From contig JAJYZA010000003.1 of assembly GCA_021800365.1 (NCBI GenBank), positions 6,182 through 70,181 on the forward strand: a stretch of DNA of 64,000 nt, written 5' to 3'. Shown here piece by piece: positions 1,099 to 33,535 of this stretch (positions are counted from its first letter, which is position 1; every line of letters begins with the position of its first letter). A model generated the notes under the pieces. It searched no databases. It saw only the letters and a program-made list of their open reading frames with translations, and was not told the origin of the DNA. The DNA comes from Nanobdellota archaeon. Its GTDB lineage: Archaea; Nanobdellota; Nanobdellia; Parvarchaeales; Parvarchaeaceae. The position numbers were made by a program, and so were the translations under genes.

Positions 1099-1878
1099 AT
1101 GGAAAGTAGCTTTGTAAATATCTATAAACAGGTACTAGATGCATCATATGATGTTTATGGCGATATAAATAGAATAAACGCAGCGATTTTAAGAGCAACA
1201 ATGGCACTGGGATTAAAGTCAATTCCAATACCCACGCTGGCCGGTCAGTCACAAAAGCAGCCCCCCGCCGAAGAAACAACGAAAGTTTCGTTGCCTACTT
1301 CTCCTAAACTAGTTTATGAAAATGTTCCTATCGCGTCAAGTGAAAAAAATAAGGGAAAAAACGAAAAGGTAGAACACGTTCCCATCAGTGCCGCTATAGA
1401 GGTCCCTATTGAGATGCAAGCACGGCACTCTCTCGAGCAGCAATCGAAGCCAAAGACTATTACGCCGACATTAAAACCCATAGGGAAGACACCAGCAGCG
1501 GAGATAGATGTTGCGGTACCGACATCGAAGTTTAGCGCGAATCCAACAGAAAAGCAGACTTCTGCTCAGCAGGAAGTCGAGATTAAAAAATTAGAACAAG
1601 ATAAGTTATCAACAGAAACTGTAATGCCGTCGAATATCTCAGAAATTCAGGCCGTACAGATAGCCCCGGCCGAAATATCTGATAATAATCTCTCGGATAA
1701 CCCCATATCAAATCTGCTAAAATTAGTAAAATCAAAAGGTTCTCTCACTATTTCAGATGCAGCCGCCATTTTAGGTGTAAAGAGGAGCTTGGTAGAGCAA
1801 TGGGCTAAGATATTAAATAAAAATTCACTTATTAGACTAAAGTATCAATTAGTTGGAGATACGATAATCGAGGTTTAA
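1099..1878 (+). CDS. Hypothetical protein: low-complexity linker plus C-terminal winged-HTH-like domain
   Basis: Long P/A/E/K/T/S-rich middle; C-terminal LTISDAAAILGVKRSLVEQWAKILNKNSLIRLKY resembles a wHTH. Confidence 0.6.
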   Translation: MESSFVNIYKQVLDASYDVYGDINRINAAILRATMALGLKSIPIPTLAGQSQKQPPAEETTKVSLPTSPKLVYENVPIASSEKNKGKNEKVEHVPISAAIEVPIEMQARHSLEQQSKPKTITPTLKPIGKTPAAEIDVAVPTSKFSANPTEKQTSAQQEVEIKKLEQDKLSTETVMPSNISEIQAVQIAPAEISDNNLSDNPISNLLKLVKSKGSLTISDAAAILGVKRSLVEQWAKILNKNSLIRLKYQLVGDTIIEV

Positions 1879-1879
1879 T

Positions 1880-2599
1880 ATGGCAGCAGGAAGTGGAAGA
1901 TTAAATAGACAAATAATAAGGATAAAAACCGGTATAGACGGTTTAGACGAAGCTCTCGGCGGCGGCGTGCCATCGGGAGACATAGTTCTTATTACAGGTA
2001 CACCAGGTTCCGGAAAAACTACATTAGCCGCCCAGGTTTTGGTGTATGGAGCTAGGAATGGTGAACTGGGATTATATTTTACTCTTGAAGAAAGCGCCGA
2101 GGATATAATACAACAGAGTGAAGTATTTTATCCGGATTTTAGGGATTTGATAAACAGTGGAAATCTAAAAATCGTTGAAGTCCCACTTACAGACTACGAA
2201 TCATTTAAGCAGACAATAATTTCGGAGATTGAAGCAACTGGTGCAAAAAGGATTACGATAGATTCGATTACTTACTTTCAAATGTTTTTTAGTGATACAA
2301 TGTCTATAAGAAAAGCAGTAATAGAAGTATCTACTATACTAAAACAGAAAAACTGCCTTGGGTTATTTATAGGCGAGATTGCCTATGGTGAAAACAAACT
2401 GTCCACGTTCGGCGTAGAGGAATTTGCTACGGATGGAGTTATAGAATTATCGATAAAAGAGAAAGGAGGATTATTTATAAGGGCAGTGAGGGTCGTTAAA
2501 ATGCGTAACACTAAACACCTCACAAAATTATGCCCAATGGATATAACAGACAAGGGCATAGTCGTTTATCCAAATGCAGAGCTATTCGCGGACACTTAG
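1880..2599 (+). CDS. Single-domain KaiC-like RecA-superfamily ATPase
   Basis: IKTGIDGLDEALGGG, Walker A GTPGSGKT, TLEES, IDSIT, ADGVIEL-like, VVKMR motifs. Confidence 0.9.
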   Translation: MAAGSGRLNRQIIRIKTGIDGLDEALGGGVPSGDIVLITGTPGSGKTTLAAQVLVYGARNGELGLYFTLEESAEDIIQQSEVFYPDFRDLINSGNLKIVEVPLTDYESFKQTIISEIEATGAKRITIDSITYFQMFFSDTMSIRKAVIEVSTILKQKNCLGLFIGEIAYGENKLSTFGVEEFATDGVIELSIKEKGGLFIRAVRVVKMRNTKHLTKLCPMDITDKGIVVYPNAELFADT

Positions 2600-22808: not shown

Positions 22809-23957
22809 CTATTGATACATCATAGATAAATCTTTTTCATGCAGAGTTTCCCGCTTTTTTTCGTCAATTTTAAGCAACTCTTTTTTAACCATTTCTTTAT
22901 CACCATCATATAAAACCTTCGTCAGCTCCAAGAAATCGTCAAGACCATAAGATATGCGTTTTTGTCGCAGGGTTTGGTCACCTGTTTGGTTAACTTGAGC
23001 AAGCGCAGCAATCGTGTATTCAACGCGTCCATTTACGACGCGTGGCTTATAATTTTTTAGATAGTTTATCCCGAAGTCCTGTAATTCATATATAAGATCA
23101 TTTACGAAATCAGTTAACTCTACCTTTGCGCCGTTTAAAAATACCTCGAGGGAAGCGACATTGTATCTTTTATTTTTTATGTCGGCGAACGATTTTTCAA
23201 GAGTGACAAGCGCATTTCCAATTTCATTGAATTCCGCGGTGCCATATTTTAGCTGCCGTTTAAATTTACCGCCTTCTTTCAGCTCGTAAATTCTAGAAGG
23301 CCATTCCACGTTAGTAACTTTCCTTATATCCTCTGATTTCAAAGTCGATAGATTAACTTTAATAAAATCATTTATATCTACTTGAGATTCACCTGCTTTT
23401 CCAAGTACAAATAGGTAACCTTCTTGCATGTTATCATCCGTGGCAAAAAATATGCTTGTCCAACCAAGTTGTCCATTTATTCCTTGTGTGTTCATTACGA
23501 TATTCTTTATATAAATAGCCTGATGCAAACTAGTTAAATTAATCGACGTTGACGGTTTCTCTTCTAATAGCGCATCTAACTGTACGTCAATCGTTACTAT
23601 TGACTTTTTACTGTCGAAGCAGTCTCTTAGTGCCGCGCCTTTGGCATTTATGCTAGTCATCTCGAGTTCATAATTTCTTATCATGGAGGGCAAATCTCCG
23701 TCATTTTCAGTAAGTTTTTCTGGTTTCATAAATATAGCTTTTTGAGGACCGAACAATTCATAGGTACGATTTTCGACAAGAACTCGCTTGTTTATGTCAT
23801 AATATTGTACTTTGGACCAGCGTAGATACGGCGCCAGCGCAGTATTAAATAACGCAATATCCAACGTATTCCCGTTAACGCTCTCAAATATTTTATTTAT
23901 CTTAGATAGCACGCTTTCTAAATTATAATCCGCACTCGCGTCTTTTGCATCTTCCAT
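22809..23957 (-). CDS. Hypothetical protein, paralogue A of a tandem pair
   Basis: Full-length similarity to 23961-25103 (EN.TYE..GP, SM..N..LEM..INA.GA.L.D, FFATD...EGYL, SLEVF.NG.K). Confidence 0.8.
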   Translation of the reverse strand: MEDAKDASADYNLESVLSKINKIFESVNGNTLDIALFNTALAPYLRWSKVQYYDINKRVLVENRTYELFGPQKAIFMKPEKLTENDGDLPSMIRNYELEMTSINAKGAALRDCFDSKKSIVTIDVQLDALLEEKPSTSINLTSLHQAIYIKNIVMNTQGINGQLGWTSIFFATDDNMQEGYLFVLGKAGESQVDINDFIKVNLSTLKSEDIRKVTNVEWPSRIYELKEGGKFKRQLKYGTAEFNEIGNALVTLEKSFADIKNKRYNVASLEVFLNGAKVELTDFVNDLIYELQDFGINYLKNYKPRVVNGRVEYTIAALAQVNQTGDQTLRQKRISYGLDDFLELTKVLYDGDKEMVKKELLKIDEKKRETLHEKDLSMMYQ

Positions 23958-23960
23958 AGT

Positions 23961-25103
23961 TTATCCAAACATCCCTTCAAAGTTGCCTTTGCCGACCGGC
24001 TTAATCCCGACATCTCCAAATAAATCCTTTTCGGCAGCGTCTTTATCGTTGTTATATAATCTTTTTACACGCTCTAAAAATTCATTGAGTGTATAAGAGA
24101 TTTTAGCAGGTTGCATTGTAATCATACCGCGTTCATCCTTCTTTGGAACGGCGGCAGCATACTGCACGTTTCCGTTTATTATCTTAGGCCGCACATTTTT
24201 TAAATAGCTTATGGCACCGTCATAAAGGTCAAATCCGATATCGCTAAGGAGATCCACTAGGTTGGTTTTCATTCCATTTACAAATACCTCTAGGGAGTTT
24301 ATGTGGCTATGTCTTTCACCATTGATTACTCTATCTTTAAGATTTGTAAGTGAATTTACGAGGTAATCAAACTCTTCTGTTGTTTGTTCTATTTGATGTC
24401 TAACTTGCCCGCTTTCTTTTATCTCATATAATCTGGGCGCCGGTTCTTTACTAACCTTATTTTTTATATCATCTGTCTTAGAAACAGAGAAGGAGAGCGT
24501 GAGGAAATCAGCCGGTTTTAAATGTTTTTCGTTAAGGGTACCGCGTATGATTAGATAACCTTCAGAACCAGAAGAGTCTGTGGCAAAGAAAGTGCTTTCA
24601 AGTATTTTCTCATCTGCTTGGAAATAACTATTTTCCACGATTTTTTTAATGGAAAATCGGGAACTTTCTCTCGCGAAAGTAAATATAGATGGGTCTTTTT
24701 TTAGTATCCCGTTCACTCTTACATCCAATCCGCCAACAGGTCGCTTAAGGACGAGTGCATCATGTAAAGAAGCCCCTCTTGCATTTATATTTATCATCTC
24801 TAGCGAAGAATTCACCAACATAGAAGGGGAGATAACGTCTGCATCGTCCGGCTTTTCGAGTTTCATATAGTGTGCAAAAGGGCCGGGAAATTCGTATGTG
24901 AGATTTTCTAACATAGTCTTACTATCAACGTCGTATTCTGCTAGGAAGGTGCGTCTTAAAAATGGACTAAGGACAAGTGCAATATTGTTAAGTTGGTAAG
25001 TACCATTATCCACAACTTTGTTAAGAAGACTGGTTTTCCTTTCAACTTCATTTAATAGCGTTTCTAAGGTAAGGTCCCTTTCTGCGACAACCTCATTTTT
25101 CAT
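23961..25103 (-). CDS. Hypothetical protein, paralogue B of a tandem pair
   Basis: Same conserved blocks as 22809-23957. Confidence 0.8.
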   Translation of the reverse strand: MKNEVVAERDLTLETLLNEVERKTSLLNKVVDNGTYQLNNIALVLSPFLRRTFLAEYDVDSKTMLENLTYEFPGPFAHYMKLEKPDDADVISPSMLVNSSLEMININARGASLHDALVLKRPVGGLDVRVNGILKKDPSIFTFARESSRFSIKKIVENSYFQADEKILESTFFATDSSGSEGYLIIRGTLNEKHLKPADFLTLSFSVSKTDDIKNKVSKEPAPRLYEIKESGQVRHQIEQTTEEFDYLVNSLTNLKDRVINGERHSHINSLEVFVNGMKTNLVDLLSDIGFDLYDGAISYLKNVRPKIINGNVQYAAAVPKKDERGMITMQPAKISYTLNEFLERVKRLYNNDKDAAEKDLFGDVGIKPVGKGNFEGMFG

Positions 25104-25170: not shown

Positions 25171-26211
25171 TCACCAAAGAATCAGAAGACTTAGGCTAGC
25201 TACAATGACTTCCAAAACAGTTAGAAGCGACACGATCTGCCATTCGCCGAAGCGACCAGTCCTCAAAAAAAGGTGAGTTAGGGAATAAATTTTCCTTCCG
25301 TGCGGGGATTTTAATTTACCATTACTTTGTATCAGCCCCCATGAATTTGCATGGAATCTTACCCTGGCCTTAAGGATAAATTCTGCTAGCCAAGGAAGTA
25401 TCAATAGCAGACCAAGAATCTGCATGTTTCCTATTATAACTGTGGCTGCGAACGTGGCTCCTATGATATAAGTAAGACTATCTCCGGGCAATATTTTTGC
25501 TGGATACGCGCCATAATAAATATAAGCTAGGAGCGCCCCGATGAACACAATGGATACCGCGAATGCGGTATATGACTGGATATGGTAAGCAAAAAGCGCT
25601 AGAGCAACAAATGCGACAAGGCCCATTTGTACTGAGATTCCATTTAGTCCTTCTAACATATTAAATGCATTTGAAGAGAACACCATCGCTAACGGGATAA
25701 CTACAAGCGCATAAACTATCTGATTTATCGTGATACTCCCAAGCAAAGGTATGCTTATAATCGGAGATCCAAAGTTTATCACCATCAGCGGTATAGCACC
25801 AAGTAGTGTGAATAGTGGTTTCTGCCATTGTTTTATCCCGCCGTTGAAGAAAGTGTAGTTGCGCGCCATCTTCAACGTACTCTGTTTTGAGGTACGTATC
25901 CTATTGCTTGAAATGTCATCCATAAAGCCCACGAATGATATCGCGACTACGCTGATTAAGGTCAATAAAAGTAGATTTTCATTTACGTCGGAGCCGATTA
26001 TGTAATTCGCCGAAAAAACCAAGGCGAGTATCCCGAAGAAAAAGCCAAGAGCAAGGACAAGACCTCCACTGGTAGGCAACATCGGTCGCTTTTTCTTGTT
26101 TATGTCTTGTGCTACTAAGTTGCTTTGGAGCAGGATAGGCATTATAAGCTGGCCGCCGACAAGCACCGAAACAAAAGCAAGCAGTGCGGATACCACTATT
26201 TCGAGTATCAT
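25171..26211 (-). CDS. UDP-GlcNAc:dolichyl-phosphate GlcNAc-1-phosphate transferase (GPT/MraY family 4, AglH-like)
   Basis: VGFMDD, SNAFNMLEGLNG, YPAKILPGDS motifs; multi-pass TM. Confidence 0.88.
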   Translation of the reverse strand: MILEIVVSALLAFVSVLVGGQLIMPILLQSNLVAQDINKKKRPMLPTSGGLVLALGFFFGILALVFSANYIIGSDVNENLLLLTLISVVAISFVGFMDDISSNRIRTSKQSTLKMARNYTFFNGGIKQWQKPLFTLLGAIPLMVINFGSPIISIPLLGSITINQIVYALVVIPLAMVFSSNAFNMLEGLNGISVQMGLVAFVALALFAYHIQSYTAFAVSIVFIGALLAYIYYGAYPAKILPGDSLTYIIGATFAATVIIGNMQILGLLLILPWLAEFILKARVRFHANSWGLIQSNGKLKSPHGRKIYSLTHLFLRTGRFGEWQIVSLLTVLEVIVASLSLLILW

Positions 26212-26295
26212 TTTATTTCTACGACAATATCCTATTTAAGCTTCATGTTGGTAATATTTTTACATACCATAACTCACCGATATAAATTATTAATG

Positions 26296-26302
26296 TTTAA
26301 AA
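26296..26302 (+). promoter_or_regulatory. Putative TATA box of tRNA-Gln
   Basis: TTTAAAA about 26-32 nt upstream of the tRNA. Confidence 0.5.
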
Positions 26303-26327
26303 GTAAACGCTACGATAAACCTCTTAT

Positions 26328-26400
26328 AGCCCCGTAGTGTAGTGGTCAAGCACGCAGGCCTTTGGAGCCTGAAACACTGGTTCAAATCCGGTCGGGGCTA
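26328..26400 (+). tRNA. tRNA-Gln(TTG), no encoded CCA
   Basis: Acceptor AGCCCCG/CGGGGCT, anticodon arm CAGGC-CTTTGGA-GCCTG, T loop TTCAAAT. Confidence 0.95.
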
Positions 26401-26459
26401 TTTTATATGGGGGATAATGTTATCTCAGAGAAATGGGACTATTTTTAAATTAGAAATCA

Positions 26460-27167
26460 TTAATTATTATAGATAAAATCATTTTTTAGAAAAGTCCTAA
26501 ATAGGTACCACCATATGCAAGGCGAATAGAGGTAGTTTTCTGTTATATAACTTTTATTTGCAAATTGTTTAAGAGAACAGTCATTTTTTCCCATATCCTT
26601 TTTAACATTACAATGTAACTGCGCTACAAATTGTTTATTTCTGGTTAGTTTACCTTTTAGATTCCTATAGCTGTAGACTATTTTCTTCTGCTTATTTAAA
26701 CCCAAATAGTATTGAGCGCCATGTCCAAAAATGTAAATTTGTCGTAAATTTTTATTTATAAACACCTCCTCGAATTCTGATTTAGAATTAATAAAATATA
26801 TTCTAAAGCAAATATTTCTCCTTAGTAAGGACCAAATTAACCAAAAAATTCCATTAAAATAAAAATGTGCTAAACTAAAAGGTGTACTTATGGCAATGAT
26901 AATCCCAACTTTCGGGTTTTTAGTTTTATGTAATTGTTTGAAATGTATAGATACATACGAAAACCCCACACCCAACAACATAAATATTGTAAATCCAACA
27001 GCTATGCCACTTAACAAAAGAACAGTGTTCATGGATTGGGTGTTATTTGTCAGAATTATAAAAGTAATTATATCTAAAATTATAGAAAATGATAATAGAG
27101 CTATTGAGAAGGTTGCAGCTAGTATAAAGCTAATTTTTACAGTAATATTGTTTTTGTCTTTAAACAT
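26460..27167 (-). CDS. 2-TM membrane protein with putative caspase/hemoglobinase-fold (clan CD) domain
   Basis: Two N-terminal hydrophobic helices; IYIFGHG (His149) and FVAQLHC (Cys186); visibly AT-richer than the flanks. Confidence 0.55.
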   Translation of the reverse strand: MFKDKNNITVKISFILAATFSIALLSFSIILDIITFIILTNNTQSMNTVLLLSGIAVGFTIFMLLGVGFSYVSIHFKQLHKTKNPKVGIIIAISTPFSLAHFYFNGIFWLIWSLLRRNICFRIYFINSKSEFEEVFINKNLRQIYIFGHGAQYYLGLNKQKKIVYSYRNLKGKLTRNKQFVAQLHCNVKKDMGKNDCSLKQFANKSYITENYLYSPCIWWYLFRTFLKNDFIYNN

Positions 27168-27214
27168 AACCTGAATAGATGCATTATAATATATAAGTAA
27201 ATATAAGTAAAATA

Positions 27215-28093
27215 TTATAAAAGTTTATTCCTTATTTTTCCCCTTAACCTGACTTCCTTCCTTTCACTTATCATTTTTCTCAGCCTGTAGTAAGTCGTTT
27301 TTGGTATTCCGAGATTCTTCGCTTCTTCAAGGCTCATGGATGTTATCTTTTCTAATAGGTTTTCATCTCTCATATAGGTCTCATATCTCACATCATCGAC
27401 TATCCCTGTCCTCTCCAGGTTACTCGCCTCCTTGCCGATGTAAATTATTTTATCGGCTATAACGTGTCTTCTTTATAAAAGACAGATGTCGCCATCAAGC
27501 TTAGATTCTAAATGGTTTATGTATTTTAAGAGAATATCACTTAAAGAACACCAATGTTCTGAGCCGTTCATCACATTACCAGTTCTGTAGTCTACAAAAT
27601 CTTTATGTGGTGCCTCTTGTGACTTTTTAGAAAATGGCGAGAGGGGTTTTATGTCTCTGTTATTGCCAAAACCGATTAGAAAGAAGTCGAACGGGATTAT
27701 ACCGCTCTTGCCGAATTTCTCGTTATATCTATCGAATCTTCTAAGTAGGCTTGGTGAAGATACCGTAAACTCAGATATAGCATAAAAGTTAGAATATTTA
27801 GAGAGAAACTCATCTAGAGTTATCTTTTCGTAGTGTAGTTTAAGTATATCTATCCATATTTCTTTTTGCCACCTTATCTCTGGGTCTCCGAACGGATTAA
27901 GAAGGTGGCCCAACCCGTACAGAGAATAGTTCTCTTTATCTTCTTTATCCTCTATTATAATTTCGCCGTTTTCTCCGAGTTGGTATAAGATGTATCTTTT
28001 AGCGCTTATGCCGTAAAACTAGATATTCTGCTCCTCTCTTTTAAGAAGTGGAATGTTTTTGTCGTATGGATTTAGGGCCTCGAAGAAGTTCAT
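27215..28093 (-). pseudogene. C-terminal remnant of a family B DNA polymerase with C-terminal HTH (casposon-like), two in-frame stops
   Basis: One frame reads MNFFEALNPY...NI*FYGISAKRYILY...YGLGHLLNPF...DGDICLL*RRHVIADKIIYIGKEASNLE...LGIPKTTYYRLRK...KLL*; stops at 28019-28021 (TAG) and 27473-27475 (TAA). Confidence 0.75.
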
Positions 28094-28176
28094 ACGTTTT
28101 AAATAAAGGATTATATCCTTCTATATTCTAATTTATTTATCTTTGAATAACTCGTATAGATAGCGTTCACGACATA

Positions 28177-29235
28177 ATGGAAGACTATGAGAAAGAGATT
28201 TGGGAAATTCTTGGCCAAAACCAGAAGAAAAAACATCCCCTGGCCAAAGAGGCCGGGACATTTTTCCTTTGCGTATTAATCGGTTTTGTAGCGGTAGGTC
28301 TTTATTTATTTTTTACTATCGGTCCACAAGGGATCTTATCCATCCTAACCGGCCTTCCTCAAAACCAATACATAGCACCGTATATTTCTCAAATAATTTC
28401 CGGAGGCCGGGCGCAGCCTACCGGGATTGGTGCCTTTGGCATTTACAACGATTCAGGTAAAATTGTGCCATATTCTGTAGAAACAAATTATATTCAAGGA
28501 AGCGCTAGCATAAATCAAATTTTCGCTTATAATCAAACTCCCCCAGAAGGCATAAGTTCTGACGGAGCCAGTCTGCAATTGAACGCCATGTTGGTCATAA
28601 CTAATTTAAATAGTTCTGAAGAGATTTTTCTAATCCAAAATGTCGTTGGTTTTGAAACTAATAGCGATGTTTTATATTATAATCCCACCGTAGTTTCATG
28701 GCGGAGCTTCACTTCATGTGGAAGTTGGCAATCAAGTACTTACACATATAATGGTAAAATAGAAAGTTTTTGTATTTTGCCGGGTAATGACATTCCGTAT
28801 ACGCTGCCGCTCTCCCTGAAGTTAGAACTCGGTCTTAGTATACAACTTGGGGTTGGTGTAACGATTTCTTACCTAATCAATGGGGCGGATTTAGGTAGCT
28901 TTCTTGTTACCGATAATGAGATTAAAAATGCAACATTCTTGACGAGTGGTTATTCGACATACAATATCGGCAATGGGTCCGTTGATCTCTATGACACCGA
29001 GCTAATATTTGGGGGAGAAGGGGATGGTGAAGCGACTTATTTTAATTCTTTGAACGCAAGCCTAAAGCTTTCGTATTTGAATTCTACTAATAATTCGTTT
29101 GTTGAATTTCCATCATTTTATAGTTTTGGAGCGGATGTCGCAGAAACGGCCGATAATCTAAACGTAACGCCAATAGGTAATGGCTATTACAAAGTGTATA
29201 ACGCTACTAGGCCAGGTTTAAGATATTTAGAGTAA
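28177..29235 (+). CDS. Thermopsin-family (peptidase A5) membrane-anchored protease
   Basis: PTGIGAFG, GASLQLNAML, IQNVVGF, ELIFGGEGDG, FYSFGADVAETADNL; N-terminal TM. Confidence 0.8.
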   Translation: MEDYEKEIWEILGQNQKKKHPLAKEAGTFFLCVLIGFVAVGLYLFFTIGPQGILSILTGLPQNQYIAPYISQIISGGRAQPTGIGAFGIYNDSGKIVPYSVETNYIQGSASINQIFAYNQTPPEGISSDGASLQLNAMLVITNLNSSEEIFLIQNVVGFETNSDVLYYNPTVVSWRSFTSCGSWQSSTYTYNGKIESFCILPGNDIPYTLPLSLKLELGLSIQLGVGVTISYLINGADLGSFLVTDNEIKNATFLTSGYSTYNIGNGSVDLYDTELIFGGEGDGEATYFNSLNASLKLSYLNSTNNSFVEFPSFYSFGADVAETADNLNVTPIGNGYYKVYNATRPGLRYLE

Positions 29236-29366
29236 AAATTCCACAAAATTAGTGCCATTTCTCCGAGATAGCACTGAAAATAGTCCAATATCTCGAGATA
29301 GCATTATCCTGCTATTCAATGATGGGCTTAGAGGATAACCAAAAACTAGATTTGTGCGCTACTAAT

Positions 29367-30290
29367 TTACTCTTCTATCTTGAATCTCTCTCTTAAATTT
29401 AGCGTGATATAAAGTTCTTTATAGCGATTTCTTATAGTTACCTCGGTTATACCAGCCGCCTTTGCTGCGTCCCTCTGTGTTTTTTTCTCTTTATTTATCA
29501 GCGTTGCAACATAAAGAACCGCTGCAGCTATGCCCATGGGGCCTTTACCACTTGTCAATCCTTTTTCTTCAGCTTCTTTAAGCAACTTTATCGAATCCGC
29601 TACGGTCTTGTTGGATACCTTTAATTCGGCAGCAAATTTATAGATATAATCATTTGGAGACGTAGGTAATATCTTTATACCGAGTTCTCTGCATAAAAGA
29701 CGATATGCTTTTCCGACTTCCTTTCTCTCTACGTTGAAGGTTTCAGAAATTTCATCCAGTGTTATCGGCCTAGAGTATTTTCTGGCAGCGGCGTAGAGTG
29801 CACCTGCGATTACGCTCTCCATAGAACGACCCCTGACAAGCCGCCTCGTTATTGCCTCACGATACATCTTGGCCGCTTCTTCTTGAACGACATTAGAAAC
29901 GTGGAGTCTATTACTGGCATGCCTTAATTCCGTAAGCGCAAATTTTAAGTTTCTTTCAAAAGCGGTCGAAATTCTAGGCTGCCACTTTCTTAATTTATAA
30001 AAAGTACGTCTGTTTGAATTTGATAGCTTTATCGATTCACTTGCTTTGCCTATAACTGTGCTGGTTCCCTTGTCATATTTGGCGTAGCTGAGCGGTGAAC
30101 CCATCCTCCCTTTTCCTTCATCTCTTTCATCTTCAAATGAGCGCCATTCTCTTCCATAATCGATCATGTCACTCTCTAATACGTATCCACAACGTTGGCA
30201 TACGGACTCACCAGTAGATTTGTCATAAATGATTGAGTTTGTACCACAGTTTGGACATTTTTGAGAAGATTTGCTTGTTATGACTTTCAT
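29367..30290 (-). CDS. tfb: Transcription initiation factor IIB (TFB)
   Basis: Zn ribbon CPNCG...CQRCG, EWRSF, GRSMES, TSGKGPMGIAAA, EVTIRNRYKEL. Confidence 0.97.
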   Translation of the reverse strand: MKVITSKSSQKCPNCGTNSIIYDKSTGESVCQRCGYVLESDMIDYGREWRSFEDERDEGKGRMGSPLSYAKYDKGTSTVIGKASESIKLSNSNRRTFYKLRKWQPRISTAFERNLKFALTELRHASNRLHVSNVVQEEAAKMYREAITRRLVRGRSMESVIAGALYAAARKYSRPITLDEISETFNVERKEVGKAYRLLCRELGIKILPTSPNDYIYKFAAELKVSNKTVADSIKLLKEAEEKGLTSGKGPMGIAAAVLYVATLINKEKKTQRDAAKAAGITEVTIRNRYKELYITLNLRERFKIEE

Positions 30291-31891: not shown

Positions 31892-33535
31892 ATGGTTGTC
31901 TCAAAGAGAGCGCAATTTATAACGGAATATCTACTAGTAATCGGTATAGCTCTTGTGATCATCGTTGCTTTCACGTTGTACATTACTTTATACTATATAA
32001 GTTATTCCAACGCTTCCAATTCTAATCAGATATATACGGCGGCAGACTCGATAATTCAAGAAGCAAATTATATCTCATCGGAAGGGGTCGGGTCAAAGAT
32101 ATCATTTCCGGTTAATTTTCCAGTGCTCAGCGCAAGCAGTTCGCTGTTTTGCGGGTCCTCTTTTAAAATAACCTCCGATGGATACTCCTCCATAACAGAG
32201 GCGAATGCCGAGATAGAGGGCGTACTGCCGCTTAATGCAGGTAACTCCGTTCTATATGCTCGTTATAACGGTAGTAATTTAGTCCAGATAGGAGTCGACA
32301 GGCCGGTGGCATTTATAACATATAATTATGCCATTTCCGGCAAATACCTCATTTATAATATTTCTTTTTACAATCTCAGTTACTATCCAGCTAAAAATAC
32401 CGGTTTTAATATTAGTGTCCTATACCAAAATGGCACCAGCATAAATAGTACTGTCGGAAGCGCAGTTTCCGGCAAAGTGAACGGTGAAATTTATGTGAAA
32501 GCATTGCCAATACCAGTAATTATCGATATATTTGTGCCACAATACTCTTTGGTTTCTCCATCTTGCTTTCCCATCGGGATAACGGCTCTAACTAATATGA
32601 CAATAAATAATTCTCAGTCCTTAGCGACCATTAGCCCATTTCAGCAGATGGTAAACCTTTCATCCTCCTTTTACAGCAGTTATGCCAATTCAGCGCTTTC
32701 AAACGTAGAGTTCTTTTACGGTAACGGCACGATAATTCCCTCATGGCTTGAGAATTATAGTGCTTCTAATGCGATTTGGTGGCTTAAATTACTACACGGT
32801 ATAGGCGCCTCCTCTTCAATCACAATCTATATTGGTTTCGCCTCAACATCGACAGATTTGTTTAATACCAATAATATCGGGGAAAACCCCCTCCTCTCGC
32901 CAGTTTATGGTGAATATGACGATGGACCAAATGTTTTTACTTTCTATGATAATTTTGCCGGCACACATTTAAGTTATAAGTGGGGCGACAACACGATAAC
33001 TCTAACAAAATCAGGAGGTACGTTGATTATCAACAACAGCATGAGTTTTGAACGAGGTTCACAAGGTAATGCTATTCCTTTTCTTAAGTCGCAAACGACT
33101 GCATTTATCCCCAGCTCAGGCGTAATAGAAGCTTATGGTACTATACCGGCAGGCGCTTCCGGTAGTAGTTATTGTTATGCTGGTTTTGGCATAACCGAGG
33201 CTGCAAATATAAATGCAAACGCGTCTGTAGTTGGTACTTTCTGCGGAACTTATGGACTATTAACTGGTAGCATTGTATCTCAAAATAAAGTAGCGGGATT
33301 GACCGGCGGAAAGTTTCTTTGGCAGATATTTATACCTTCCACTACTCCGTCGATAATATATGCGTCACAGAATTATGGGCCTAAAATTTCTTCTTCTTTA
33401 GATATGCCAAAATTACCGCAAGTCATCACTTTTTTTGATCAGAATGGTACTAATATTAATCTCGGACCATTTTACTGGGTCAGAACTCGTGCTTATCCTC
33501 CAAACGGAGTAATGCCGACAGTCACGGTCGTTTAA
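31892..33535 (+). CDS. Class III signal-peptide protein with DUF2341 domain
   Basis: KRA/QFITEYLLVIG; PFQQMVN...NGTIIPSWLE...WWLKL...IGENP..YGEYDDG; C-terminal YWVRTRAYPPNGVMP; ATG at 31892. Confidence 0.8.
   Translation: MVVSKRAQFITEYLLVIGIALVIIVAFTLYITLYYISYSNASNSNQIYTAADSIIQEANYISSEGVGSKISFPVNFPVLSASSSLFCGSSFKITSDGYSSITEANAEIEGVLPLNAGNSVLYARYNGSNLVQIGVDRPVAFITYNYAISGKYLIYNISFYNLSYYPAKNTGFNISVLYQNGTSINSTVGSAVSGKVNGEIYVKALPIPVIIDIFVPQYSLVSPSCFPIGITALTNMTINNSQSLATISPFQQMVNLSSSFYSSYANSALSNVEFFYGNGTIIPSWLENYSASNAIWWLKLLHGIGASSSITIYIGFASTSTDLFNTNNIGENPLLSPVYGEYDDGPNVFTFYDNFAGTHLSYKWGDNTITLTKSGGTLIINNSMSFERGSQGNAIPFLKSQTTAFIPSSGVIEAYGTIPAGASGSSYCYAGFGITEAANINANASVVGTFCGTYGLLTGSIVSQNKVAGLTGGKFLWQIFIPSTTPSIIYASQNYGPKISSSLDMPKLPQVITFFDQNGTNINLGPFYWVRTRAYPPNGVMPTVTVV

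Follow-up and report, generated by a model that had tools for sequence, protein, structure and literature searches.

A gene at one end of a small mobile-element remnant in the genome of a Nanobdellota archaeon appears to encode a membrane-held protein with a caspase-like fold. The gene, P0001, lies in a 64,000-nucleotide stretch of contig JAJYZA010000003.1 (GenBank assembly GCA_021800365.1, positions 6,182 to 70,181), referred to here as the window, and the source genome spans 0.90 Mb, is 98% complete and has a guanine plus cytosine (GC) content of 39%. According to the reading which we favour, and which we hold to be slightly better than an even bet, P0001 is a membrane-held cysteine hydrolase with a caspase fold, likely a peptidase, which belongs to an undescribed single-gene family accessory to modification-based immunity and which arrived by way of a casposon. 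The predicted fold, the invariant His/Cys pair, the carriage by a casposon and the presence of relatives in restriction-modification, BREX and Hma clusters make this family a strong candidate for a defence gene family that has yet to be described.

The open reading frame (ORF) of P0001 is intact, as a preliminary description of this DNA had stated. The two transmembrane helices announced there were also recovered: a hydropathy scan marks membrane segments at residues 22-40 and 49-67, both N-terminal to the catalytic domain, and the AlphaFold2 model places helices at residues 7-39 and 43-77. Lysines stand before the first helix and after the second, and none occurs in the uncharged TNNTQSM loop which joins them. 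Because the lysines lie only outside this loop, the well-established positive-inside rule would give the protein an N-in/C-in topology, with the catalytic domain in the cytoplasm. One or more N-terminal membrane segments, mostly followed by basic residues, were found by a crude hydropathy scan in 55 of 68 family members. A housekeeping role as a sortase or signal peptidase was set aside, given the predicted cytoplasmic domain and the patchy distribution of the family.

When supplied with an alignment of 68 family sequences, AlphaFold2 modelled P0001 with a pLDDT score (predicted local distance difference test) of 89.2 and a predicted template modelling (pTM) score of 0.82, while the single sequence gave an all-helical model with a pLDDT of 54. 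The order of strands and helices guessed in the preliminary description agrees with the DSSP assignment on the first of these models (pLDDT 89), in which the strands are b1 at 87-92 (VGIIIA), b2 at 121-126 (CFRIYF), b3 at 143-147 (QIYIF), b4 at 178-183 (KQFVAQ) and b5 at 203-207, and the helices of the domain fall at 96-116, 129-136 (KSEFEEVF), 199-202 and 215-228. Strand b3 leads into G148-H149-G150 and b4 into L-H185-C186, and a hairpin (154-158/163-166) ends at Tyr167. The domain is thus predicted by the model to have a three-layer alpha/beta/alpha fold whose sheet is mainly parallel and of caspase topology.

A structural search had been named as a check on the caspase-like fold, and its outcome agrees with the claim: the first 30 Foldseek matches in the PDB were all caspases (caspase-3, -7, -2, -4 and -11) or the SAVED-CHAT filament (8tl0), with probabilities of 0.77-0.99, mostly >=0.9. 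Unrelated Rossmann-like folds rank below them with lower probability. The template modelling (TM) scores of these 30 matches range from 0.26 to 0.43 and are normalised on the full 235 residues, although the domain accounts for only about 150; since about 80 of the 235 residues form the membrane hairpin, the TM score of the domain alone would be roughly 0.6 by our own estimate.

The residues proposed as catalytic, His149 and Cys186, and their spacing of 37 residues were verified by script. Two features of clan CD peptidases are present around them, namely a His-Gly straight after a hydrophobic strand (QIYIF-G-H149-G150) and, C-terminal to this His, a Cys after the next hydrophobic strand (KQFVAQ-L-H-C186). 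The family was further compared by hhalign with orthocaspases of the same phylum (Pfam-verified Peptidase_C14; 13 genomes matched, 10 sequences used), which gave P=0.0019 with a score of 28 over 104 columns (P=0.009 in the script version) and aligned the two b1 strands, the GHG of the family with the catalytic GHG, and its HC with the catalytic (D/A)C. A profile search of PDB sequences returned nothing relevant, the best match being a HAD hydrolase at E 0.02. Judging from the topology and from the alignment in caspase register, His149 and Cys186 would lie next to each other in space at the C-terminal ends of the adjacent strands b3 and b4, where His149-Gly and Cys186 may form a catalytic dyad. 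Of the earlier assignment to clan CD, the predicted fold and the His-Gly/Cys order have stood; by sequence the protein belongs to no curated clan CD family in Pfam, and the relation is one of remote homology or strong convergence, not of membership in C14.

P0001 has no significant match in Pfam, NCBIfam, PADLOC or PHROGs. A word-index search found one 99% twin and one 42% relative, and phmmer, run exhaustively against 1.8 billion cluster representatives, returned 75 relatives at E<=1e-3. When 68 members were compared with the same four libraries, only noise was obtained and no curated family was matched, with a single member reaching PF00656 (Peptidase_C14) at E 0.058; none of the 68 has a meaningful match in PADLOC-DB 2.0.0, where the family is catalogued neither as a known nor as a candidate defence protein. 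The 68 sequences were aligned first, and 29 proteins from newly fetched loci were then added to reach 97. H149, G150, Y167 and C186 are invariant in the smaller alignment. In the larger one, Gly150 and Cys186 are kept in 97 of 97 sequences, His149 and Tyr167 in 96, His185 in 95, Gln183 in 94 and Lys178 in 92, followed by L199 (90/97) and N187 (83/97), so that the proposed His and Cys passed the check for conservation which had been set for them. Overall identity across the family, in contrast, is merely ~20-40%. The conserved His/Cys pattern exceeds chance, because its positions are kept in 92-97 of 97 sequences despite that low identity. The family signature can be written as [ILV]-x-[ILV]-[FIL]-G-H-G ... 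Y ... K-x-[FY]-[IV]-x-Q-x-H-C-N ... S-L.

The distribution of the family is patchy, with a clear homologue in about 5 of 401 genomes of the phylum. Among viral structures, only one entry of BFVD resembles the P0001 model (A0A8S5MXG5, an uncharacterised protein of 320 residues from Myoviridae sp. ctWaE18; Foldseek E 4.7e-4, probability 1.00), and because of this match a phage-encoded caspase-fold protein of the P0001 type may exist.

Inspection of the neighbourhoods of homologues, also proposed at the outset, showed a defence or mobile context for at least 15 of the roughly 23 loci whose flanks were usable, a raw tally made without a formal null model. Members of the family are embedded in six kinds of DNA-modification defence systems. 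Two type I loci (L065 and L070) share the order HsdM-x-HsdS-member, with gaps of 8 and 21 nt, and the second continues after the member to Fic and HsdR; the same type I order occurs in Methanoregula (L015/L080) with an extra gene between HsdS and the member, and in L001 the member adjoins hsdRMS, GmrSD and SocA. In a BREX-1 locus (L073) PglX and PglZ are followed by a member overlapping the PglZ stop and then by BrxL (E 2.7e-252), and in the Hma loci (L076-L079) the member and the start of hmaA (E 4e-187) overlap, hmaB lying downstream. Type IIG enzymes lie near members in L002, L006 and L038 (the last from congener G018), and the member/type IIG pair is kept in L006 and L038, where the enzymes are 50% and the members 37% identical. 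Type III-like genes (L055, L087) and the type IV enzyme Mrr (L074/L075) were found near other members. In the type I, BREX-1, Hma and type IIG loci the members lie co-directionally between or against the core genes, whereas the P0001 copy does not. An all-against-all BLAST of the neighbours revealed no conserved partner gene common to the loci. In L038, a 235-residue ORF starting MTIGIAGIF (1392-2099, reverse strand) stands between an insertion sequence (IS)-type transposase and the caspase-like/type IIG pair; by eye, it looks like a protein of the proteasome-beta/Ntn-hydrolase type.

Time and again, genes embedded in Hma, restriction-modification or BREX operons have turned out to be defences (10.1101/2024.01.29.577857; PMC11411939). 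The embedded independent defences described so include HEC-02 to HEC-08, TgvAB, BrxU and PrrC, none of which is a membrane protein or has a caspase fold. The preprint which introduced the embedding approach mentions neither 'caspase' nor 'membrane' (10.1101/2024.01.29.577857).

The tight, co-directional packing of the members in operons which all hold a methyltransferase together with a nuclease or helicase would also fit a protease serving the restriction, BREX and Hma systems themselves, without attacking viruses or killing the cell. Such a protein might cleave a restriction subunit, so that restriction is delayed or relieved, on entry of the system into a new host or in the presence of unmodified self-DNA, for which ClpXP-dependent restriction alleviation offers an analogue. 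The overlaps with PglZ and hmaA, the gaps of 8-22 nt after HsdS and the type IIG pair retained in two diverged loci speak for it, as does the mobility of the partner systems (casposons and IS elements), which would make control of their establishment useful. However, the partners are mechanistically diverse (types I, IIG, III and IV, BREX and Hma), so that one protease would face many substrates; the members in the window, L009 and L056 have no such partner, and the known embedded genes turned out to be independent defences. We regard this explanation as distinctly unlikely.

The preliminary description had placed P0001 on a mobile element, and this element can now be named. Inverted repeats of 33-34 nt enclose positions 26412-29309 and their motif occurs nowhere else in the 0.9-Mb genome; directly outside them is a 15-16-bp target duplication abutting tRNA-Gln (Table 1). 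Casposons are recognised by their insertion at tRNA 3' ends, by terminal inverted repeats and by 15-bp duplications (PMC9939771). Since the repeats, the duplication and the tRNA 3' site match these published hallmarks, the segment is, to judge from its sequence, a decayed and non-autonomous casposon remnant of 2.9 kb at the 3' end of tRNA-Gln. The neighbour of P0001 is a PolB fragment with an in-frame TAG at 28019-28021 and TAA at 27473-27475 in an otherwise single frame, which includes a KxY-type motif (YGISAKRY) and a terminal helix-turn-helix and shares 37% identity (E 3e-26) with residues 626-795 of the 902-residue PolB in locus L009, where this polymerase of a related archaeon stands next to a Cas1-solo gene. 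Given the identity to the C-terminal part of that protein and the broken frame, the fragment is the final third of a casposon polymerase and has become a pseudogene. No match to Cas1 (PF01867) was found in the whole source genome. P0001, whose ORF ends 14 nt from the repeat and 58 nt from tRNA-Gln, is the terminal gene of the remnant and the sole casposon-derived gene still intact; its ORF has a GC content of ~27%, forming a 27%-GC island against the genome mean. Upstream of it, a region with A/T-rich boxes would fit an archaeal promoter for a leaderless or short-leader mRNA. The casposon would have integrated at the 3' end of tRNA-Gln, bringing the gene with it, and would later have lost Cas1 and most of PolB.

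Table 1. Features of P0001 and of the surrounding casposon remnant (window positions)
Feature	Position	Strand	Remarks
tRNA-Gln(UUG), integration target	26327-26401	+	
Left target-site duplication	26397-26411		GCTATTTTATATGGG; covers the last 5 nt of tRNA-Gln
Left terminal inverted repeat	26412-26445		GGATAATGTTATCTCAGAGAAATGGGACTATTTT
P0001, caspase-like gene	26460-27167	-	Intact ORF, ATG start, 235 residues
Caspase-like alpha/beta domain, residues 87-228 (~150 residues)	26484-26909	-	Predicted order b1-a-b2-a-b3(GHG)-hairpin-a-b4(QxHC)-a-b5-a
Cys186 codon, putative nucleophile	26610-26612	-	Q-x-H-C-N motif; QLHC starts at residue 183
His185 codon, near-invariant	26613-26615	-	From the family alignment
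His149 codon, putative catalytic His	26721-26723	-	G-H-G motif; IFGHG starts at residue 146
Membrane hairpin, N-terminal	26937-27149	-	AlphaFold2 helices (residues 7-39 and 43-77) and hydropathy peaks
Region upstream of P0001	27168-27214	-	A/T-rich TATA-like boxes, TTATATATTATAA ~18-31 nt before the ATG; sequence reading
Casposon-type protein-primed PolB pseudogene	27215-28093	-	C-terminal ~293 codons only
Thermopsin-family gene	28177-29235	+	PF05317, E 1.5e-37; intact, host-like GC, inside the repeat-bounded element
Extra inner repeat copy	29245-29273		Right-end orientation
Right terminal inverted repeat	29277-29309		Reverse complement is GGATAATGCTATCTCGAGATATTGGACTATTTT
Right target-site duplication	29311-29326		GCTATTCAATGATGGG; 13 of 16 aligned positions equal the left copy
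TFB gene	29367-30290		

A related genome carries a comparable insertion. At the tRNA-Gln gene of congener G218, the same repeats and a 15-bp duplication (GCTAAATTTGGTAAG / GCTAAATTAGATAAG) surround different contents, and sites at tRNA-Gln are empty in congeners G018, G342 and G390, a comparison based on the flank at the tRNA 3' end. The glycosyltransferase/tRNA-Gln block and the TFB gene (25171-30290) are adjacent here apart from the element, and stand about 45 kb apart and in opposite orientation in three congeners (L029-L036); this separation suggests a rearrangement breakpoint at or near the element, and because of it the right flank is unusable as a simple empty-site control. The thermopsin-family gene may be cargo or a later insertion, both of which are possible; the matching element of G218 (L037 1695-3720) carries a YVTN-repeat surface protein in its place. 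The third repeat copy, 3 nt before the right terminal repeat, could trace a tandem or nested insertion.

Homologues also accompany casposon genes elsewhere. In L006 a member (P0006) has Cas1 on one side and a type IIG enzyme on the other, not far from PolB, and in L009-L011 another (P0007) lies beside HNH, Cas1 and PolB; between L006 and L009, Cas1 is 60% and PolB 37% identical (E 3e-175 for the latter). Inverted repeats were sought in both loci and none was convincing, so the element ends and the placement of the cargo inside them are unproven there. A gene found as terminal casposon cargo in the window, L006 and L009 might benefit the element rather than the cell, as a toxin or exclusion factor serving casposons and defence islands; it could, for instance, kill cells post-segregationally or stop rival elements or viruses at the membrane. 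The patchy distribution, with ~5 strong matches in 401 genomes of the phylum, and the frequency of transposases and toxin-antitoxin-type genes nearby (SocA/Panacea, ImmA with DUF4411, HEPN/NTase) are in keeping with this. No antitoxin-like neighbour is common to the loci in the all-against-all BLAST, however, and to be embedded between HsdS and HsdR, or PglZ and BrxL, is the usual pattern of host defence cargo; among the explanations considered here, this one seems to us the least probable.

Several observations weigh against the reading of P0001 as a caspase-fold peptidase of an immune family. Its similarity to caspases is remote, with Foldseek E-values of 3e-3 to 3e-2 and none <=1e-3, the hhalign comparison with orthocaspases has a probability of only 15%, and P0001 has no match above the gathering score to the models of PF00656 or of CHAT (PF12770). 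The domain is about 100 residues shorter than a caspase and lacks the p10-type half, which holds the S1 pocket and dimer interface; its sheet has five strands plus a hairpin and one C-terminal helix, and differs from the six-stranded p20-plus-p10 arrangement of PF00656. As the p10-type elements are absent, peptide cleavage is not assured. The near-invariant His185 beside Cys186 has no caspase counterpart and could mean a different chemistry or metal binding. Searches of phage and plasmid collections by tblastn, and of IMG/VR by a pattern scan, yielded no homologue. Some loci have ordinary or unclear contexts, namely ribosomal genes and Lit (L056), replication genes (L040), metabolic genes (L063) and unclear surroundings (L062 and L041). 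No restriction partner is adjacent to P0001, and its ORF differs from its only close relative, the near-identical L094, by 3 nonsynonymous changes and 1 synonymous change.

The homologue in L040 (7374-8027, genome G360) has an in-frame TAA and stands among genes for primase, the PolD small subunit and RNase HII; it is probably a decaying copy.

Part of these observations would suit a caspase-fold enzyme or scaffold other than a protease, such as a Cys/His hydrolase or transferase at the membrane, or a housekeeping membrane protein with incidental defence neighbours. The size of the domain without p10-type substrate-binding elements, the conserved His185, Tyr167 and Lys178, which have no caspase equivalents, and the housekeeping loci, with L056 beside a Lit-family membrane protein and L040, all lean this way. 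We nevertheless judge it very unlikely, as the placement of His-Gly and Cys is the clan CD signature and is in register with orthocaspases, and the tally of at least 15 of about 23 usable loci in defence or mobile contexts argues against incidental neighbours.

Other observations concern only the local copy, which might be a relic, functionless in this genome and open by chance since the casposon decayed. Two in-frame stops interrupt the adjoining PolB, from which ~600 N-terminal codons are missing, Cas1 is absent from the genome and no restriction partner lies nearby; moreover, no N6_Mtase-type (PF02384) methylase was found in the source genome, and N6_N4 methylases occur only on its other contigs. 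The changes against L094 are mostly nonsynonymous, and with just 4 differences the ratio of nonsynonymous to synonymous rates (dN/dS) is uninformative, so that constraint on P0001 is not demonstrable from this pair. At the decay rate of PolB, the chance that no stop would have arisen in P0001 is, by our own estimate, still ~0.2. Against this stand the ten near-invariant residues of the family, all of which are retained, and the intact A/T-rich promoter-like region. We consider a relic unlikely, and it would bear on the local copy only and not on the nature of the family.

Returning to the favoured reading of a membrane-held peptidase accessory to immunity, its mechanism may be outlined as follows. 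The two-helix hairpin would tether a small cysteine hydrolase, most likely a peptidase, to the cytoplasmic face of the membrane, and the family would act as an accessory module in DNA-modification-based immunity, with casposons carrying it as cargo among DPANN archaea. In the most likely working model, a latent, self-contained protease at this site would cut proteins of the virus or the host at the membrane in the course of infection and so form a second line next to restriction, leading either to abortive infection or to the destruction of proteins which enter with viral DNA. The protease activity, the substrate and the anti-virus role of P0001 are all put forward here as what the analysis makes plausible. 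A more specific version, which we offer as speculative and rather less than probable, is that of a new and widespread single-gene immune module, a membrane-tethered mini-caspase which guards or complements type I, IIG and III restriction, BREX and Hma. It would set off abortive infection once those systems are blocked, in the manner of PrrC, or cleave anti-restriction and other proteins entering with viral DNA at the inner face of the membrane, and it would be spread by casposons among genome-reduced DPANN archaea, where compact one-gene defences would be favoured.

Proteases of the caspase fold are increasingly recognised as immune effectors in prokaryotes, as in SAVED-CHAT, Craspase, type IV Thoeris and gasdermin activation, and since such effectors are already known the kind is not new. 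To our knowledge, all known examples in prokaryotic immunity are large, soluble and wired to a sensor, and the P0001 family would comprise the smallest caspase-fold protein known. What appears new in the family is the minimal size, the membrane tether, the lack of a sensor, the embedding in restriction, BREX and Hma loci and the carriage by casposons, features which were not found for such a family in the libraries and literature searched. If active, the family would define a minimal catalytic core of the caspase fold and would equip restriction, BREX and Hma loci with a protease arm. Casposons are thought to be ancestral to CRISPR adaptation, and the present case, if true, would be the first defence-type cargo tied to them. 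Through its bacterial homologues, the family is directly testable in Escherichia coli.

Two further features of the window were recorded. A large DUF2341-like surface protein (31892-33532, forward strand) resembles, at 44-64% identity over short stretches, two ORFs of 257 and 219 residues in L009 (6429-7816), which stand immediately upstream of the caspase-like gene of that locus. At 22809-25103, on the reverse strand, two tandem paralogues of ~380 residues have no Pfam or PADLOC match.

Among known systems, the remnant shares with casposons the casposon-type PolB, the terminal inverted repeats, the ~15-bp duplication and the insertion at a tRNA 3' end, and intact related casposons carry a homologue of P0001; it differs in the lack of Cas1, in a PolB reduced to the last third and surviving only as a pseudogene, and in its length of 2.9 kb compared with 8-20 kb. 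Caspases, metacaspases and orthocaspases (MEROPS C14, PF00656) resemble P0001 in the predicted fold and strand order, with a hydrophobic strand leading to His-Gly and, after a hairpin and a helix, a Lys-x-hydrophobic strand that ends in Gln...Cys. By contrast, P0001 has a domain of ~150 residues instead of ~250, lacks the p10-type half and any Pfam match, carries Q-x-H-C-N where they have Q-A-C-x-G, and begins with a membrane hairpin, with no prodomain or cleavage linker evident. HetF-type cyanobacterial proteases share a membrane-associated caspase-hemoglobinase fold (PMC9457339). They differ in that HetF, a large regulator of development, acts on a defined substrate, PatU3, has no sequence relation to P0001 and stands in another genomic context.

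SAVED-CHAT (8tl0) gave the lowest root-mean-square deviation (4.5-6 Å) and the highest TM score among the PDB matches of P0001, and, together with the TPR-CHAT protease of Craspase and the caspase-like effector of type IV Thoeris, it represents caspase-fold effectors of anti-virus systems. These are much larger, soluble proteases that work with a fused or partner sensor (SAVED, TPR/Cas or a TIR signal), whereas P0001 has a membrane anchor, no sensor domain, no signalling partner and no match to PF12770; the earlier remark that no sensor partner is visible holds for the window. Finally, although the proteins encoded by PrrC (an ABC-ATPase anticodon nuclease) and the HECs (ATPases, nucleases or RNases) are unrelated to P0001 and none is a membrane or caspase-fold protein, the family resembles PrrC, TgvAB, BrxU and HEC-01 to HEC-09 in that a small independent gene is wedged between the subunits of a DNA-modification defence.

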